From Mustelus asterias (taxonomy: Eukaryota), in contig NC_135817.1 of NCBI RefSeq assembly GCF_964213995.1, forward strand, positions 53,134,001 through 53,198,000: DNA of 64,000 nt. The letters run 5' to 3'. A model generated the notes under the pieces. The model was not told where the DNA came from, made no database searches, and was given only the letters and a program-made list of their open reading frames with translations. Position numbers and translations under genes: made by a program. Shown here one piece after another: positions 14,565-59,265 of this stretch. The first letter of the stretch is position 1. Each line of letters begins with the position of its first letter.

Positions 14565-17486
14565 CTATCTATAGCCCTCAATCCCATTAAATCCCATGTA
14601 CTCATCCAGAAGTCTCTTAAAAGACCCCAACGAGTTTGCCTCCACCACCACCGACGTCAGCCGATTCCACTCACCCACCACCCTCTGAGTGAAAAACTTA
14701 CCCCTGACATCTCCTCTGTACCTACCCCCCAGCACCTTAAACCTGTGTCCTCTCGTAGCAACCATTTCAGCCCTTGGAAATAGCCTCTGAGAGTCTGCCC
14801 TATCCAGACCTCTCAACATCTTGTAAACCTCTATCAGGTCACCTCTCATCCTGCGTCTCTCCAGGAAGAAGAGACCAAGCTCCCTCAACCTATCCTCATA
14901 AGGCATGCCCCCCAATCCAGGCAACATCCTTGTAAATCTCCTCTGCACCCTTTCAATGGCTTCAACATCTTTCCTGTAATGAGGTGACCAGAACTGTGCG
15001 CAGTACTCCAAGTGGGGTCTAACCAGGGTCCTATAAAGCTGCAGCATTATCTCCCGACTCCTAAACTCAATCCCTCGATTAATGAAGGCTAGTACGCCGT
15101 ACGCCTTCTTGACCGCATCCTCCACCTGCGAGGCAGATTTAAGAGTCCTATGGACCCGGACCCCAAGGTCCTTCTGATCCTCTACACTGCTAAGAATGGT
15201 ACCCTTCATATTATACTGCTGCTTCATCCCATTGGATCTGCCAAAATGGATCACCACACACTTATCCGGGTTGAAGTCCATCTGCCACTTCTCCGCCCAG
15301 TCTTGCATTCTATCTATGTCTCGCTGCAACTTCTGACATCCCTCCAAACTATCCACAACACCACCTACCTTGGTGTCGTCAGCAAACTTACCAACCCATC
15401 CCTCCACTTCCTCATCCAGGTCATTTATGAAAATGACAAACAGCAAGGGTCCCAGAACAGATCCCTGGGGCACTCCACTGGTCACTGACCTCCATGCAGA
15501 GAAAGACCCCTCCACAGCCACTCTCTGCCTTCTGCAGGCAAGCCAGTTCTGGATCCACAAGGCAACAGCCCCTTGGATCCCATGCCCTCTCACTTTCTCA
15601 AGAAGTCTTGCATGGGGGACCTTATCGAACGCCTTGCTGAAGTCCATATAGACCACATCCACCGCTCTTCCTTCGTCAATGTGTTTGGTCACATTTTCAA
15701 AGAACTCAACCAGGCTCGTAAGGCACGACCTGCCCTTGACAAAACCGTGCTAACTACTTTTGATCATACTAAACTTCTCTAGATGATCATAAATCCTGTC
15801 TCTCAGGATCCTCTCCATCAACTTACCAACCACTGAGGTTAGACTCACCGGTCGGTAATTTCCCGGGCTGTCCCTGTTCCCTTTCTTGAATATAGGGACC
15901 ACATCTGCAATCCTCCAATCCTCCGGAACCTCTCCCGTCTTCATCGACGATGCAAAGATCATCGCCAAAGGCTCCGCAATCTCCTCCCTCGCCTCCCACA
16001 GTAACCTGGGGTACATCCCATCCGGTCCCGGCGACTTACCAACCTTGATGCCATTCAATAGTTCCAACACATCCTCTTTCTTTATGTCCACATGCTCGAT
16101 CCTTTCTGTCCACCGCAAACCAGCAGTACAACCACCCAGATCCCTTTCCACCGTGAATACCGAGGTAAAGTATTCATTAAGCAGCTCCGCCATTTCTAAC
16201 GGTTCCGCACAAACTTTTCCCCCTTCACCTTTTAAGGGTCCTATGCCTTCACATCTCATCCTTTTACTCTTGACATATTTGTAGAAAGCCTTGGGATTCT
16301 CCTTAATCTTACCCGCCAAGGCCTTCTCATGACCCCTTCTCGCTCTCCTAATTTCCTTCTTAAGCTCCTTCCTACATCCCGTATACTCCTCTAAATCCTT
16401 AACACCTCCTAGCTCTCTGAACCTTCTGTACGCCTCTCTTTTCTTATTCACCAGGTTCATCACAACCTTCGTGCACCACGGTTCCCGTACCCTACCAACA
16501 CCCCCCTGTCTCATCGGAACGTTGTCATGCAGAGCTCCAGACAAACATTCCTTGAAAATCCTCCACTTTCCTTCGGTACTTTTCCCCAAGAATGCCTCCT
16601 TCCAATTTACCCGTCTAATTTCCTCCCTGATGACACTGTATTTCCCTTTACTCCAGAGAAACACTTTCCTAGCCTGCCTGATCCTATCTCTTTCCAATGC
16701 TATCGTGAAGGAGATAGAATTATGATCGCTATCCCCAAGATGCTCACCCACCGAGAGATCCTCCACCTGTCCAGGTTCATTAGCCAGCACCAGATCAAGT
16801 ACAGCCTCTCCTCTAGTAGGCTTATCCATATACTGTGTCAGGAAACTCTCCTGGACACACCTAACAAACTCCTCTCCATCCAAACCCCTAGCCCTAGGGA
16901 TATTCCAATCTATGTTTGGGAAATTAAAATCTCCCATCACGACAACTCTGTTATTCCTACATCTCTCCAGGATCTGTTTCCCCATCTGCTCCTCAACATC
17001 TCTGTTACTATTGGGCGGCCTATAGAAAACACCCAGCAACGTTACCGACCCCTTCCTGTTCCTAACCTCCACCCACAGAGACTCCGTAGTCAATCCCTCC
17101 ACGGCGTCCACCTTCTCTACAGCCGTGACACTATCCCTGATCAACAGTGCCACTCCCCCCCCCTCTCTTGCCTCCCTCCCTGTCCTTCCTGAAACATCTA
17201 AAACCCGGCACCTGAAGCACCCAGTCCTGTCCCTGAGACATCCAAGTCTCCGTAATGGCCACCACATCACAATTCGAAGCAGCAATCCACGCTCTAAGCT
17301 CATCCACTTTATTCACTACACTCCTGGCATTAAAATAGACACATCTCAGACCTTCAGCCTGAGCACTTCCCTTCTCCATCACTCGTCTAACCTCCCTCTT
17401 ACCCTGTTTACATTCCTTATCTATTTGCGAGCTAACCTCCTCGCTCTCAGTCCCCTCATTTCGATTCCCTCCCCCCAATCTTTCTA
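14565..17486 (-). pseudogene. CR1 ORF2 (APE endonuclease + reverse transcriptase) with two lesions
   Basis: YFNARS, ITETW, GDFN, SDH (APE); GVPQGSVLGP, KFADD (RT). +1 frameshift in the C9 run 17155-17163 and TAG at 15752-15750 where CAG of SQHGF is expected. Confidence 0.92.
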
Positions 17487-18401
17487 GTTTAAAGTCTCTC
17501 CAGTAGCCTTAGCCAACCTTCCCGCCAGGATATTGGTCCCCCTGGGATTCAAGTGCCACCCGTCTTTTTTAAACAGGTCACACCTGCCCCTAAAGAGGTC
17601 CCAATGATCCAAGTACCCAAATCCTTGTCCCTTGCTCCAGTCCCTCAGCCACGCATTCATTCTCCACCGATTCCTGTTCTCACTCTCCCGCGGCACAGGC
17701 AGCAATCCCGAGATTACTACCTTTGCATTCCTCTTTCTCAGCTGTCTACCTAACTCCCTATATTCTCTTTTCATGACCCCTTCCCTCTTCCTACCTATGT
17801 CAGCAGTACCTATATGCATCACGACCTTCGGCTCCTCTCCCTCCCCCTTCAGGATTTCTGGGACTCGACCAGAGACATCCCGGACCCCTGCACCAGGGAG
17901 GCAAACCACCATCCGAGAGTCCCGTCTGTGTCCGCAAAAACGCCTATCTGACCCCCTCACCGTAGAGTCCCCAATTAGCACTACCCTCCTTTCCTTACCC
18001 TTTTGCACTACTGGGCCAGGCTCAGCTCCAGAGACACTGCCACCGCTGCTTCCCCCAGGTGGGCTGTCCACCCCAGTAGTACTCAGACAGGAGTACTTAT
18101 TATTAAGGGGCACATCCACCGGGGTGCTCACCATCAACCGAGCTTTCTCCTTCCTCACTGTTACCCAGTTACCCTCCTCCCGTGGTCCCGGTGTGACCAC
18201 CTGCCGATAGCTCCTGTCAATGACCTCCTCACTATCCCTAACCCGGCGAAGGTCCTCGAGCTGCAATTCCAGTTCCCTAACATGGTCCCTTAGGAACCGC
18301 AGCTCAACACACCCAGCACAGATATGGTCGTCCGGGAGGCTAGGAGCCTCCAGGACCTCCCACATCCTACATTGGGAACAACATACTGGCCTCACACTCA
18401 T
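17484..18401 (-). CDS. CR1 ORF1 protein (Cys-rich finger/coiled coil + SGNH/GDSL esterase-like domain)
   Basis: Uninterrupted ORF: CCSQC..CAGC, leucine-heptad segment, LIGDS, HIGTAD, DGWH; ends ..ETLN*. Confidence 0.9.
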   Translation of the reverse strand: MSVRPVCCSQCRMWEVLEAPSLPDDHICAGCVELRFLRDHVRELELQLEDLRRVRDSEEVIDRSYRQVVTPGPREEGNWVTVRKEKARLMVSTPVDVPLNNKYSCLSTTGVDSPPGGSSGGSVSGAEPGPVVQKGKERRVVLIGDSTVRGSDRRFCGHRRDSRMVVCLPGAGVRDVSGRVPEILKGEGEEPKVVMHIGTADIGRKREGVMKREYRELGRQLRKRNAKVVISGLLPVPRESENRNRWRMNAWLRDWSKGQGFGYLDHWDLFRGRCDLFKKDGWHLNPRGTNILAGRLAKATGETLN

Positions 18402-18589
18402 AATTGCCCCTTTAAACACACAGGGAAAAAAAAAAGTGAATGAAAATTTTAAACTTACCTTTCCTCCTCCTGTTTTCTCCAAAGCCCTGCTCTCACTGGG
18501 TCTTTTTTTTTAGGTTAGAGGAGGAGGGAGGGTGGGATACTCTACAAGTGTAGAGTATCGGGATTCCTCTCTGTTCCAATTTATTGGGA

Positions 18590-20866: not shown

Positions 20867-21324
20867 AACCTAATACCACTGTTAAAACAAGTCCATTGGT
20901 TGATTTCACCCTCCCTCCCAGTCCCCACCACCCCGTGAATAATGCAAACCTCCATCTCTTCCCTAGTTTCTCACTCAATGTATTTTTCTCACTCAACCTT
21001 CATATCCCAGCTATAACATTCCTTAACCATAAAGAAGAGTATTCACCTGTGAGCACTTCCATGGTGAGGATCAATGGTCCTATAATCAATCTCCAGGGGG
21101 TTTAGAATTCAGTACATTTCAGAGTTGTGAGACAGGCTGTTCCTGTTTTACTTCCGCGAGCCTGCAAAGTGTACTAGCATTGCTCATCTGAGAAATTAAA
21201 CAAACCTTATTCTCAAATTATTAGGAATCGAACTCTCAGGTACTCCGGCACTAACTTCACTTTTTTCCATTGATGTTGGAGATGTGTGCACCCCATTGTT
21301 CATTTTTGTCTCTTTCTCTTCCAG

Positions 21325-21732
21325 TCATTCCAGACACGCTGAGTGCAGTATCGGTACCACAGACCCTGAGTAAAGTAGAAGGTGACTCCCTGGAACTGGT
21401 CTGTGAAGTATCCAAGCAAACATTCCAGCACACGCACGTGGCTGTCGCATGGTACCTACAGAAGGGAGATCAGAATCTCAAGGTCATCTCTCTAACTCGA
21501 GATTTCATCCTACGTTCTGGAGAGTCATTTAAGCAGAGACAGGCATCGGGAGATGTACGACTGGATAAGATTGGAGTGACTTCATTCAAACTCACCATCT
21601 ACCAACTGCAAGCATCTGATCAGGGAGAGTTCTATTGTGAGGCTAGAGAGTGGATCCAAGACCCGGACAGGTCTTGGTACACCATAGCTACCAAACGCAC
21701 TGACAAAACAATGGTGAATATAAAAGCTACTG
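21325..21732 (+). CDS. IGSF3: IGSF3-like exon, Ig-V domain (equivalent to IGSF3 domain 2, EWI motif)
   Basis: ttccag| acceptor, G|gtaagt donor, 408 nt, phase 1-1; VIPDTL..LELVCEV..VAWY..DQGEFYCEAREWIQDPD, recognisably like vertebrate IGSF3. Confidence 0.92.
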
Positions 21733-21796
21733 GTAAGTAGTTACCACTCAAAGGCAGTGACCAGTATAGCTATTAAGTTAATGTATCGAGAATAGT

Positions 21797-24070: not shown

Positions 24071-24290
24071 CAGTGCTACACTGGAGAGCAGGTGTAATAT
24101 CCCAGCAAGAGTCAGAACCTTTTGAAGGGAGGCAGAGAGGCTTTGAAGTTTGGGAGGACAAACTGCAGTCTGCAGATATGGGGAACAATCTGAGACAGTC
24201 TGGGGAGTGACAAACCAGCTTTTGGTTGCAATTCTTCACTGCTGAATTCCCATGCTCTAATGTTATCTGCATGTCCACATTCTGTTACAG

Positions 24291-24680
24291 ATAAGAGCTT
24301 CAATGTTCAGCTGGAGAATGAAAGGAGAGTTTTCACAGCTGGAGATACCATGGAATTAAGATGCGTCATTGAGGCTCAAAACATACAGGACCGATATTTC
24401 TCTGTGCTGTGGATTTTTAATGGCACGCCGATTGCCAACATTGGCCGTAACGCTGTACCGACAGTCAAGGTTGAATACACAGCCAGAGATCATCTGGGAT
24501 ACGTGAGGTTTGCAAAGGAGACAGATACAACCTACCTGCTGAAAATCTACCATGCGCAACTGGAGGACAGCGGCAAATACCATTGTCGAGCCACTGAGCA
24601 TGAGAAAACGGTTACAGGAGAGTTCATTGCCAGGCACACCAACAAATCTACTAAAGTTTTAATCAATGTCCAGCCTGTCA
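24291..24680 (+). CDS. IGSF3: IGSF3-like exon, Ig-V domain (domain 3 equivalent)
   Basis: ttacag| acceptor, A|gtaagt donor, 390 nt, phase 1-1; DKSFNVQLE..LRCVIEAQN..DSGKYHCRATEHEKTVTGEFI. Confidence 0.92.
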
Positions 24681-25282
24681 GTAAGTGACTGTCCAAAAAT
24701 TGCTTCTGTCCCTTGAAGAATTGACAGTATGTGATCTTTTGGTAGCTTGGAATAACTGCAGAGCAATTCCAGCATTCTTTTGTGTACATTTTCAGTCGGA
24801 CAAAGAAGTTGATTTGAGGCAGCAGTGCCTCCAGTCGGGGTGCTTTTCGTCACAAGCGGTCTTTCTCTGCAACTAATGTTGTCTCATATTTTAAACTGAA
24901 AGTATCTAATCAGAGTTAAGTTGCGGTTATCACACTGTCAAGGCTGCTTCAGGCTGTGTGGAAATACTGTTGCTTAGTGATGCAGCTCTTATCAGTACAG
25001 AAAGAAACTGTTAAAAAAACTTTCCCATGGTTACATAAGGGTCTGCTTGTTTCTAACAACTCTTCGCAAAGGAATCTGGGTTTAGTATGGCCCAGTTATC
25101 AGATCCAGAACATATTTGAAAAACAAATGTATAATTAAAGGAAGGGGGTAATTTGGACCTTTTTAGAGAGAGGAATGAAACACAACCAATGTCACAGGGG
25201 CTAAAAGCTCACCCAATCATTTTTATTACTAGAGTTTTGCTGTTATGCAGCAACCTTATTACAAAGCATGTGTTTATAAGAA

Positions 25283-31580: not shown

Positions 31581-34500
31581 CCCATAGAACATAGAACATT
31601 ACAGCGCAGTACAGGCCCTTTGGCCCTCGATGTTACGCCGACCTGTGAAACCAATCTAAAGCCCATCTAACCTACACTATTCCAATATCATCCATATGTT
31701 TATCCAATGACCATTTGAATGCCCTTAATGTTGGCAAGTCCACTACTGTTGCAGGCAGGGCATTCCACGCCCTTACTACTCTCTGAGTAAAGAACCTACA
31801 TCTGTCCAATATCTATCACCCCTCAATTTAAAGCTATGTACCCTCATGCTAGCCATCACCATCCGAGAAAAAAGGCTCTCACTATCCATCCTCTGATCAT
31901 CTTGAATGCCTCTATTAAGTCACCACTTAACCTTCTTCTCTCTAACGAAAACAGCCTCAAGTCCCTCAGCCTTTCCTCATAAGACCTTCCTACCATACCA
32001 GGCAACATCCTGGTAAATCTCCTCTGCACCCTTTCCAATGCTTCCACATCCTTCCTATAATGCGGTGACCAGAACTGTACGCAATACTCCAAGTGCGGCC
32101 GCACCAGAGTTTTGTACAGCTGCAACATGACCTCATGGCTCCGAAACTCAATCCCTCTACCAATAAAAGCTAACACTCCGTACACCTACTTAACAACCCT
32201 ATCAACCTGGGTGCCAACTTTCAGGGATCTATGCACATGGATACCGAGATCTCTCTGCTCATCCACACTACCAAATATCTTACCATTAGCCTAGTACTCT
32301 GTATTCCTGTTACTCCTTTCAAAGTGAATCACCTCACACTTTTCCGCATTAAACTCCATTTGCCACCTCTCAGCCCAACTCTGCAGTTTATCTATGTCCC
32401 TCTGTAACCTGCAACATCCTTCCGCACTGTCCACAACTCCACCGACTTTAGTGTCATCCGCAAATTTACTAACCCATCCTTCTACGCCCTCATCCAGGTC
32501 ATTTATAAAAATGACAAACAGCAGTGGCCCCAAAACAGATCCTTGCAGTACACCACTAGTAACTGAACTCCAGGATGAACATTTCCCATCAACCACCACC
32601 CTCTGTCTTCTTACAGCTAGCCACATTCTGATCCAAACCGCTAAATCACCCTCAATCCCATGCCTCCGTATCTTCTGCAATAGCTAACCGTGGGGAACCT
32701 TATCAAACGCTTTACTGAAATCCATATACACCACATCAACTGCTTTACCCTTATCCACCTCTTTGGTCACCTTCTCAAAGAACTCAATAAAGTTTGTGAG
32801 GCATGACCTACCCTTCACAAAACCATGTTGACTACCCCTCATCAAATTATTCCTTTCCAGATGATTATAAATCCTATCTCTTATAATCCTTTCCAAAACT
32901 TTGCCCACAACAGAAGTAAGGCTCACTGGTCTATAATTACCAGGGTTGTCTCTACTCCCCTTCTTGAACAAGGGGACAACATTTGCTGTCCTTCAGTCTT
33001 CTGGCACCATTCCTGTAGACAATGATGACAGAAAGATCAAAGCCAAAGGCTCTGCAATCTCCTCCCTAGCCTACCAGAGAATCCTAGGATAAATCCCATC
33101 CAGCCCAGGGGACTTATCTACTTTCACACTTTCCAGAACTGCTAACACCTCCTCCTTATGAACCTCAATCCCGTCGAGTCTAATAGCCTGTATCTCATTA
33201 TTCTCCTCGACAACATTGTCTTTTTCCTGTGTGAATACTGATGAAAAATATTCATTTAGCGCCTCTCCTATCTCTTCAGACTCCACGCACAACTTCCCAC
33301 TACTGTCCTTGACTGGCCCTAATCTTACCCTAGTCATTCTTTTATTCCTGACAAAGCTATAGAAAGCTTTAGGGTTTTCCTTGATCCTACCTGCCAAAGA
33401 CTTCTCATGTCCCCTCCTGGCTCTTCTTAGATCTCTGTGTCCTTCCTGGCTAACTTTTAACTCTCAAGCGCCCTAACTGAGCCTTCACGTCTCATCTTTA
33501 CATAAGTCTCCTTCTTCCTCTTCACAAGAGATTCAACTTCTTTGGTAAACCACGGTTCCCTTGCTCAACCACTTCCTCCCTGCCTGACAGGTACATACTT
33601 ATCAAGGACATGCAGTAACTGGTCCTTGAACAAGCTCCACATTTCAATTGTGCCCATCCCTTGCAGTTTCCTTCCACATCCTATGCATCCTAAATCTTGC
33701 CTAATCGCATCATAATTTCCTTTTCCCCAGTTATAACTCTTGCCCTGCGGTATATACGTATCCCTTTCCATCGCTAAAGTAAATGTAACCGAATTGTGGT
33801 CACTATCACCAAAGTGTTCACCTCCCTCCAAATCTAACACCTGGCCTGGTTCATCACCCAGTACCAAATCCAATGTGGCCTCGCCTCTTGTTGGCCTATC
33901 TACATACTGTGTCAGAAAACCCTCCTGCACACATTGGACAAAAACGGACCCATCTAAAGTACTCTAACTATAGCTTTTCCAGTCAATATTTGTAAAGTTA
34001 AAGTCCTCCATAACAACTACGCTGTTACTTTCGCTCCTATCCAGAATCATCTTTGCAATCCTTTCCTCTACATCTCTGGAACTTTTTGGAGGCCTATAGA
34101 AAACTCCCAACGGGGTGATCTCTCCTTTCCTGTTTCTAACCTCAGCCCATACTACCTCAGTAGACAAGTCCTCATCAAACATCGTTTCTGCCACCGTAAT
34201 ACTGTCCTTGACTAACAATGCCACACCTTCCCCCTCTTTTGCCAACTTCCCTGATCTTACTGAAACATCTACACCCTGGAACCTGCAACAACCATTCCTG
34301 TCCCTGCTGTATCCATGTCTCCGAAATGGCCACAACATCGAAGTCCCAGGTACCAACCCATGCTGCAAGTTCACCCACCTTATTCCGGATGCTCCTGGCG
34401 TTGAAGTAGACACACTTCAAACCACCTTCCTGCCTGCCAGTACACTCCTGCGACCTTGAAATCTTATTCATGACCTCACTACTCTCAACCTCCTGTACAC

Positions 34501-34994
34501 TGGAGCTACAATTCAGGTTCCCATGCCCCTGCTGAATTAGTTTAAACCTTCCCGAAGAGCATTGGCAAATTTCTCCCCCAGGATATTGGTACCCCTCTGG
34601 TTCAGGTGTAGACCATCCCGTTTGTAGAGGTCCCACCTACCCCAGAATGAGCCTCAATTATCCAGGTACCTGAATCCCTCCCTCCTGCACCATCCCTGTA
34701 GCCACGTGTTCAACTGCTCTCTCTCTCTATTCCTCTCCTCGCTAGCACATGGCACGGGTAACAAACCAGAGATAACAACTCTGTTTGTTCTAGCTCTAAG
34801 CTTCCACCCTAACTCCCTGAATTTCTGCCTTATATCCCCATCCCTTTTCCTAGCTATGTCTTTGGTGCCTATGTGGACCACGACTTGGGGCAGGTCCCCC
34901 TCCCCCTTGAGGATCCCAAAAACACGATCTGCGACATCACGGAGCCAGGCACCTGGGAGGCAACACACCAGCCGCGAGTCTCTCTCGTTCCCCT
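31581..34994 (-). mobile_element. 5'-truncated CR1 LINE (second family; 3' half of ORF1 + disrupted ORF2)
   Basis: SGNH-like ORF1 remnant (34654-34968), APE/RT fragments (YFNARS, SDHN, KFADD), (CTATGTT)n tail, 8-bp TSD ATAGATAA at 31573-31580 and 34995-35002. Confidence 0.93.
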
Positions 34995-35372
34995 ATAGAT
35001 AAAGACAAAACAAATCAGTTGACTACCATTCTGTCCCCATCCTCTGCCACACTTGTATGTTAATCCCAAGCAGTTTACCCTAGATTTATAGCAATAAAAA
35101 TAATTAGATTACTGTCAGTATGAAAATAACATTGATCAAATAATCTATGCTATTACTTCTTCTGTCTGTTTCAAAGAGAATTACAATCTTATCCAGAAAA
35201 CATTCACAAAAGCTATTTGTAAAAGGTTTACTCATTGGCATTGCTACAAATTCTTACGAAACAAAAAATATAATGATTCTTATCATCCGAAAGAGGATAG
35301 ATCCTTGGCTCTGGTATAATTGTCATTCCACAGAACTACCAATTTCACCTAAATGTATTTTGTTTCCTGCAG

Positions 35373-35774
35373 AAAGTAGCCTGAGTACAACAGTTACCAG
35401 TAACACTACCAAGGTTTTGGAGGGCAACTCGCTCCAGTTCAACTGTGAGGTTCGTTCGGCCGTCAGAAGCCACAGTCGTCTTTCTGTCACTTGGCAGTTG
35501 ATCAACAAACAGAAACAGGTCACTGATATCATCAGCTTGGAACAGGACGGCACTCAGGTCATTGGTACACTGTACCGTAAGCGTGTCGCTAACGGAGATG
35601 TCAGGCTGACCAAACCACGGCCAGATTCTTTTGTGCTGCAGCTGCATAACTCGGCGATGTTGGACGATGGCGAATACGTTTGTACAGTGGCTGAATGGAT
35701 CATGAACGTGGGTGGAGATTGGCAACGAATAGGAGAGAAGTCTGCTCATATTGTAGCGATGGTAACACCTCTGG
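35373..35774 (+). CDS. IGSF3: IGSF3-like exon, Ig-V domain (domain 4 equivalent)
   Basis: ctgcag| acceptor, G|gtaagt donor, 402 nt, phase 1-1; KSSLSTTVTSN..FNCEV..VTWQL..DDGEYVCTVAEWI. Confidence 0.92.
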
Positions 35775-36158
35775 GTAAGTACTTGCATCAGAAAAGCCTG
35801 AGGTTTGTAAATTGTTCCCGTGTGCTAGTCTACTGCCTGCCTGATTATCTAAAAGGAGCATTTTCTTGTGGACTAGATTAACACTGGATATGTTGTGGTA
35901 GTTGAGGTATTGATGAAAGAAAGTTATAATGCTGGAATCGCAACTTATGAAGTATGTAATGGGGAGGAGGATACTGGGGAGTTAAAAATGAATGCAGCAT
36001 GATATTTTCAATGTGAGGAGCTCATTGGATTGGATTCAGCAGATTGAGTTGTGGAGGGACCAGCAAGCATCTTCTGAAACCCTGCACCTCCAACTGGTGG
36101 AAACTGGCTGTTGGGATATATTGTAATAAGGAGAACAATGCTAGCTCACTCACATACA

Positions 36159-59060: not shown

Positions 59061-59265
59061 TTGCGTGTTCGTATATAGTCTAGTGTGAACGTGGAACTGG
59101 GCAAAGATAGAGCAACAAGACCATTTGAGTTTCTGGGAGGGCTTTTAAACTAATTTAAATAAAACAATCCGTACAAAACTACCTGTAATAGGAAAGTCAT
59201 GATGTGGAGGTTGGAGCAACTAAAATGAAAATGCCTTCAGTTGCCCACTGTCAAGCAGACACTGA

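Follow-up and report, generated by a model that had tools for sequence, protein, structure and literature searches.

The window analyzed here is a 64,000-nucleotide stretch of the 3.68-Gb genome of Mustelus asterias, and its minus strand carries a CR1 LINE of ∼3.4 kb that extends from position 34992 to approximately 31583. The element consists of the end of an esterase-type ORF1 followed by an ORF2 with an APE endonuclease and then a reverse transcriptase, the domain order of the CR1 clade, and it finishes with two copies of ATGTTCT (31599-31586). Such an end, with short tandem repeats and no poly(A), is presumably of the CR1 type. It runs in antisense orientation to a plus-strand gene and is situated between two of that gene's exons. 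Three Ig V-set exons of the gene were seen (21255-21740, 24194-24688, and 35144-35881); the last of these contains an EWI motif that suggests what we take to be the IGSF3/CD101/PTGFRN group. The features that concern us are as follows.

34540..34992, minus strand: 3′ remnant of CR1 ORF1 with the SGNH esterase domain (Lipase_GDSL_2, E 1e-6, under the curated cut-off)
34540..34546, minus strand: slippery heptamer U UUA AAC, in the X XXY YYZ register with the ORF1 frame
34537..34539, minus strand: ORF1 stop codon UAA, directly after the heptamer
34510..34538, minus strand: 7-bp hairpin of an earlier note (arms 34538-34532 and 34516-34510), weak and family-specific, rejected as a stimulator
34520..34529, minus strand: G-rich motif after a 10-nt spacer, family form GGGGGAUGGG, with a private C at 34525 in this copy; candidate 3′ stimulator
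34409..34536, minus strand: stop-free −1 linker between heptamer and endonuclease, 46 codons long up to the Y of YFNARS
34469..34471, minus strand: in-frame AUG, 25 codons past the heptamer; the corresponding codon of sister families is UUG or CUG
31890..34420 (end approximate), minus strand: decayed ORF2 (APE endonuclease, reverse transcriptase), disrupted by stops and frame breaks
31583..31599, minus strand: 3′-terminal short repeats of ATGTTCT, read from the sequence
17484..17493, minus strand: counterpart of this junction, U UUA AAC UAG, from a young CR1 family, with its G-rich motif at 17476-17467

The flagged ORF2 matched the Pfam families Exo_endo_phos (E 3e-4) and RVT_1 (E 3e-14), and ExoIII and L1 endonuclease matches were obtained for a related family. 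Lipase_GDSL_2 was matched above its cut-off (E 7e-13) by ORF1 of the copy at 17.5 kb, and the closest named ORF1 protein homologues came from rays, skates, and sharks. The flagged copy is 5′-truncated near 34992, where homology ends in 15 of 29 loci of its family, and a premature TGA interrupts the ORF1 remnant at 34656-34654. Because its 5′ end is missing, ORF1 contains a stop, and ORF2 has both stops and frame breaks, this copy cannot use the signal described below; it is a dead relic in which the signal is preserved. None of 24 in-place copies of the flagged family retained at least 250 open ORF1 codons, versus 23 of 30 in the 17.5 kb family. The latter (17484-18500 in the window, L031-L060) is very young: its 40 best matches were 99.8 to 100% identical over 451 nt, and ORF2 was open for at least 400 codons in 24 of 30 copies, the window's own copy having a frame break near 17300.

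On the minus strand, the ORF1 remnant ends with GAA GGT TTA AAC TAA (TTTAAAC at 34546-34540, TAA at 34539-34537), exactly as it had been read in the earlier note. The same note described an open −1 frame and an AUG within it, and both are present: RFKLIQQGHGNLNCSSSVQEVESSEVMNKISRSQECTGRQEGGLKCVYFNARS is read without a stop into LKCVYFNARS of the endonuclease, and the ATG at 34471-34469 sits in this frame. Its further observation of a second site is also borne out, since TTTAAAC TAG occurs in the same phase at 17493-17487 in a family that is 67 to 68% identical to the flagged one over the final 240 nt of ORF1. Within the window, TTTAAACTAR occurs on the minus strand at these two sites only; the plus strand has a single occurrence, at 59144, and no ORF1 end was matched there.

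Conservation within the flagged family (0.986 for the heptamer; 0.986 and 0.983 for its flanks) was uninformative, so the comparison was made between families. Most own-genome loci had been fetched with queries that contained the junction, and a separate unbiased sample was therefore taken from 80 arbitrary 10-kb stretches, in which 6 of 6 ORF1 ends carried TTTAAACTAR. Copies of further families were fetched using the sampled ORF1 ends and two protein queries, and junctions were located with a profile that lacked the last 8 ORF1 residues. This finder returned 260 own-genome junctions; the stop lay within 4 codons of its expected place in 233, and TTTAAAC preceded it in 210 of these, while 19 of the remaining 27 junctions retained TTTAAACTA nearby with an indel or a stop close by. 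Once duplicates had been removed, there were 217 copies whose stop lay precisely at the expected place, and 204 of them had the exact TTTAAAC. Clustering yielded 10 multi-copy own-genome families, 57 to 95% identical in the ORF1 tail, and all 10 had U UUA AAC UAR. Among 30 metagenome loci, those intact to the junction provided six bird-type lineages with U UUA AAC UAG, which resemble a stork sequence (P0062), along with one distant lineage, L261, with G UUA AAC UAG. The form G UUA AAC is listed as the shift site of equine arteritis virus in the accessible text of a frameshifting review (PMC5009743). The 10 families, the six bird-type lineages, and L261 make up the 17 lineages counted below; they are related (F5/F7 by 95% and F0/F2 by 83% in the ORF1 tail) and thus do not represent 17 independent events. 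Left out of the counts were F9, F10, and F13-F17, which are decayed or chimeric members of families that the counts already include (three of them with the variant heptamers TTTAAAA, TTTCAAC, and ATTAAAC), F23 (a single decayed copy with TTTAAAT), L266 and L282 (frame breaks beside the site), and those metagenome loci that stop short of the junction. In a subfamily found on small contigs only (L295, L303-L305, L315, L317-L320), the stop after the heptamer is TGA rather than TAR, and the downstream G run is expanded.

The claim that conservation acts at the nucleotide level withstood a synonymous-site check: synonymous variants of the terminal Leu and Asn codons occurred in 0 of 17 lineages. 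The terminal Leu was TTA in all 17, versus a TTA share of 0.165 among Leu codons elsewhere in the region, and six other conserved Leu columns used 4 to 5 codons each. Likewise, the terminal Asn was AAC in 17 of 17 versus 29 of 74 elsewhere, and another invariant Asn column was divided between AAC (8) and AAT (9). The first base of the heptamer was T in 16 of 17 lineages, with the codon that it ends encoding G, T, D, A, S, or C; the sole exception was the G UUA AAC of L261. Among the 10 own families, a single codon was also used in 3 of 37 other scored columns and in one Glu column, and relatedness accounts for some of this codon fixation; these four columns specify two- or three-codon amino acids, and none was fixed over all 17 lineages. 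Ten bases upstream of the heptamer, 15 of 17 lineages have a T, which is usually the first base of a −1 frame stop located 5 codons ahead of the heptamer and which may have been selected to close the frame overlap.

In the 16 lineages with a visible endonuclease motif, the motif was always in the −1 frame relative to ORF1, over 11 different linker lengths (37 to 97 codons). The −1 linker was stop-free to the endonuclease in 15 of these 16, versus 1 to 12 stops in the other two frames, and the chance of an open linker was 0.002 to 0.26 per family. The linkers are under weak purifying selection, with pN < pS in 5 of 6 pairs and equality in the other. At the level of single copies, 33 of 192 with a visible motif had it in another frame, mostly in older families. 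Family F3 (L171-L200) had the motif in frame 0 in 8 of 30 copies, perhaps through a shared linker indel or as a non-autonomous subfamily. Of the 10 own-genome families, 7 lack an AUG ahead of the first endonuclease motif, and the same is true of 103 of the 159 single copies that are in phase. In all 10 families, the −1 frame is closed by a stop 1 to 6 codons upstream of the heptamer, so no upstream AUG is usable. Family F0 has its first AUG at codon 166, and the Asn and Glu aligned with N7 and E34 of ExoIII, which we take to be catalytic residues, lie before it. The linker of family F7 contains none of ATG, CTG, GTG, TTG, or ACG. The junction combines a heptamer in the zero-frame register, an open −1 frame into a conserved domain, and synonymous conservation, three of the features expected of a frameshift site. 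Because ORF1 ends with U UUA AAC and a stop and ORF2 follows in the −1 frame, mostly without an AUG, ORF2 of these CR1 LINEs is likely made by programmed −1 ribosomal frameshifting, as an ORF1p-linker-endonuclease-RT fusion.

The open −1 linker would also be accounted for by termination and reinitiation, in which ribosomes that have terminated at the ORF1 UAR resume translation in the −1 frame, either at an AUG or at a non-AUG codon (e.g., the CUA overlapping the stop), and make ORF2p as a protein of its own; such a mechanism has been proposed for L1 and SART1. Three of the 10 own families have an AUG before the endonuclease, among them the flagged family with its AUG at 34471, and an AUG is found 2 nt past the stop in three of the six bird-type lineages; furthermore, near-cognate codons are present in most linkers. 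According to the accessible parts of the respective papers, the L1 ORF2 AUG can be replaced by any sense codon (PMC1965478), and start-codon changes are tolerated in calicivirus reinitiation (PMC5972666). However, the AUG position varies between families and is lost in sisters, and the bird-type lineages that lack it have GTG, TGG, or TCG at that codon. The AUG at 34471, which the earlier note had drawn attention to, is well kept within its own family (T in 26 of 30 and G in 29 of 30 copies), yet as a start codon it is not conserved: the aligned place holds UUG in F0 and CUG in L354 and L365, both of them near-cognate starts, and the AUG of the 17.5 kb family is missing from its sister L351. 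An AUG of the SART1 type, overlapping or adjoining the ORF1 stop, was found in 0 of 10 own families and, outside these, only in the three bird-type lineages. Reinitiation predicts neither the fixed U UUA AAC upstream of the stop (TTA and AAC in 17 of 17, T in 16 of 17) nor the LN/GN/KN pattern of ORF1 ends described below. We regard it as an unlikely source of ORF2p in general, although it may coexist with frameshifting in bird lineages.

For frameshifting at this site, the earlier note had invoked an adjacent hairpin. The two segments, AAUUCAG (34538-34532) and CUGAAUU (34516-34510), are complementary as stated, but a stimulatory role did not hold up: the stem is weak (−3.6 kcal/mol), its pair probabilities are at most 0.32, it is not part of the minimum-energy fold, and the 7-pair stem was found in only 1 of 17 lineages. 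It also begins 1 nt after the heptamer, inside the stop codon, and a stem starting so close would be covered by the ribosome. The 80 nt from the flagged stop onward folded no better than shuffled sequences (z +0.83), and no conserved hairpin or stable fold was detected after the site in the 17 lineages (z −1.7 to +1.6, in a model of local, nested pairs), so the classic stimulator seems to be missing. A G-quadruplex was rejected as well, being predicted by ViennaRNA in only 5 of 17 lineages, the flagged family not among them.

What is shared is a G-rich motif that starts 11 nt after the heptamer, at positions 18 to 27 from the heptamer's first base. G occupied successive conserved positions of the motif in 17, 17, 16, 16, and 15 and then in 16, 16, and 13 of 17 lineages, versus 34% G further down. 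The pattern GGGKRNNGG, which was defined after the data had been seen, occurred at the motif offset in 15 of 17 lineages versus 0.0015 per position elsewhere in the linkers, and L261 has a similar G run 3 nt nearer to the heptamer. The Gly codon was GGG in 15 of 16 cases versus 37% usage. The motif could also reflect a need for Gly-x-Gly in the fusion linker.

We also looked at the ends of more distant ORF1 proteins. LN was the terminal dipeptide in 37 of 59 ORF1 homologues, many of the others appearing to be partial. From a profile search, 146 representatives were examined; the match extended close to the C-terminus in 120, and 91 had their end at the expected place. The terminal dipeptide was compatible with a slippery heptamer in 64 of these 91 (LN 44, GN 15, KN 3, NL 1, GF 1), versus 6% of internal dipeptides; 67 of 91 ended in Asn, and 27 had incompatible ends, including EN, SN, or FN in five. 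LN, GN, and KN are the dipeptides spelled by U_UUA_AAC, G_GGA_AAC, and A_AAA_AAC, three of the four heptamers that are named as most shift-prone in the accessible part of PMC5009743. A DNA locus for the GN- and KN-ending lineages was not found in viral, prokaryote, or plasmid collections, so the covariation stays at the protein level; for this reason, and because the profile was built from LN-ending proteins and favors such ends, the LN/GN/KN pattern is only a lead. Several distant ORF1s (P0108, P0126, P0198, P0175, P0170, P0177, P0092, and P0194) have FF-x or GF-x before the stop, which would fit a heptamer of the form U UUU UUY or G GGU UUY placed one codon earlier. One sequence filed as a Pseudomonas aeruginosa SGNH hydrolase (P0023) is 54% identical to CR1 ORF1 and ends in GLN; it is probably host DNA in a bacterial assembly. 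Natural long ORF1-ORF2 fusions gave 3 matches among 7998 scored candidates, none of them a clean full fusion. Two predicted proteins, P0036 (stingray) and P0062 (stork), continue in a single frame from ORF1 into the endonuclease by way of FKL and the linker, and they probably represent copies with a one-base loss or joins made by the gene models.

The heptamer might have been kept for another reason, such as a Leu-Asn C-terminus required by ORF1p or an RNA or DNA signal (protein binding, or a splice or processing site), with ORF2 being made from a shorter or spliced RNA. The LN ends of the ORF1 homologues and the Asn ends of the distant ORF1s fit the first possibility, and the adjoining G-rich motif could be part of a non-translational signal. 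Protein constraint, however, cannot fix synonymous positions, and this explanation leaves the single phase across 11 linker lengths and the AUG-less families unaccounted for. Sequencing runs bear weakly on the splice variant: 24 were listed, with one on record as RNA, and the comparison covered assembled contigs only; the contigs of four runs that are putatively RNA contained neither a joint nor a listed heptamer indel at the 17.2-17.8 kb junction and attest to its presence only. We consider this explanation very improbable. Transcriptional slippage at TTTAAAC, which has T and A runs and where the gain of one base in some transcripts would fuse the frames at the RNA level with the same product, is extremely improbable, as the runs are only 3 long versus the runs of 9 cited for bacterial slippage in the accessible text of PMC5009743. 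A base gained in a transcript would, moreover, return to the genome when that transcript is copied, yet the heptamer is exact in 204 of the 217 copies whose stop is in place. Uses other than frameshifting or reinitiation are, taken together, quite improbable.

Frameshifting therefore stands as the preferred reading, and from the earlier interpretation we retain the −1 recoding signal deduced from nucleotide conservation while setting aside the hairpin and the AUG at 34471. In the predicted mechanism, a tandem one-base slip would move tRNA-Leu from UUA to UUU and tRNA-Asn from AAC to AAA. Most ribosomes would halt at the adjacent UAR and release ORF1p, whereas a minority would read on (..G-L-N-L-I-Q..) through the variable linker, setting a ratio like that of Gag to Gag-Pol. 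The pause would probably be caused by the G-rich motif 11 nt downstream, through a bound protein or a local G structure, and perhaps by the stop codon, rather than by the flagged hairpin. A broader reading, which we offer tentatively and consider somewhat doubtful, is that esterase-type CR1 LINEs, the dominant retrotransposons of most vertebrates, have kept a Gag-Pol-like ORF1p-ORF2p −1 frameshift since before the split of sharks and birds, that the heptamers were swapped (U UUA AAC, G GGA AAC, A AAA AAC) in distant lineages, and that the shift is driven by a G-rich motif at the ribosome entry channel and not by an RNA fold, mirroring the C-rich, protein-stimulated signal of arteriviruses.

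Frameshifting by −1 is itself a known mechanism. The CR1 junction is a real, family-wide signal, 27 nt long. How LINEs produce ORF2p is a long-open question that has been studied mostly in L1 and SART1, for which reinitiation was proposed. If CR1 uses a frameshift, its reverse transcriptase would be tethered to ORF1p at a set ratio, ORF2 annotations that start at a late AUG and lose endonuclease residues would be corrected, and CR1 retrotransposition assays would have to keep the junction; a G-rich motif that stimulates the shift without an RNA structure would represent a kind of cellular frameshift element that is new. We found no description of a CR1 frameshift in the literature searched; older chicken and turtle CR1 papers (1990s), Repbase notes, and supplements, which lie outside that search, may mention it. 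In their accessible text, the 2026 CR1 survey (PMC13343379) and the paper on the esterase structure (PMC3905857) do not mention a frameshift or address the translation of ORF2, CR1 is absent from that of the 2016 frameshifting review (PMC5009743), and the corresponding portions of PMC5006619, PMC5972666, and PMC11835228 describe no CR1 frameshift. A chicken report applies the term frameshift to retroviruses only.

The domain order of the elements studied here is that of canonical vertebrate CR1 as outlined in the accessible parts of PMC13343379 and PMC3905857, with the same SGNH-esterase ORF1 followed by the APE endonuclease and RT. The L1 and SART1 systems, as far as the available text of PMC5972666 and PMC1965478 describes them, resemble CR1 in having a bicistronic LINE RNA with low-level ORF2 after ORF1; L1 differs in its 63-nt spacer and SART1 in its overlapping stop and start codons, and both make a separate ORF2p with no slippery heptamer described. 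TRE5-A and TRE3-A of Dictyostelium are APE-type non-LTR elements for which the accessible text of a review (PMC5911963) states that a −1 frameshift is necessary for ORF2; these elements belong to another clade and have an unrelated ORF1. The U_UUA_AAC sites of the coronavirus type share both heptamer and register with CR1 and, according to the available portion of PMC5009743, are among the most shift-prone in mammalian ribosomes, but they are followed after a short spacer by a 3′ pseudoknot, whereas in CR1 the stop follows at once and no conserved fold was detected. In the arterivirus PRRSV, the same portion of this review places a CCCANCUCC motif 11 nt 3′ of the shift site, the distance at which GGGKRNNGG is found in CR1; the PRRSV motif is C-rich and bound by nsp1-beta with PCBP, whereas that of CR1 is G-rich, so the likeness is one of analogy only.
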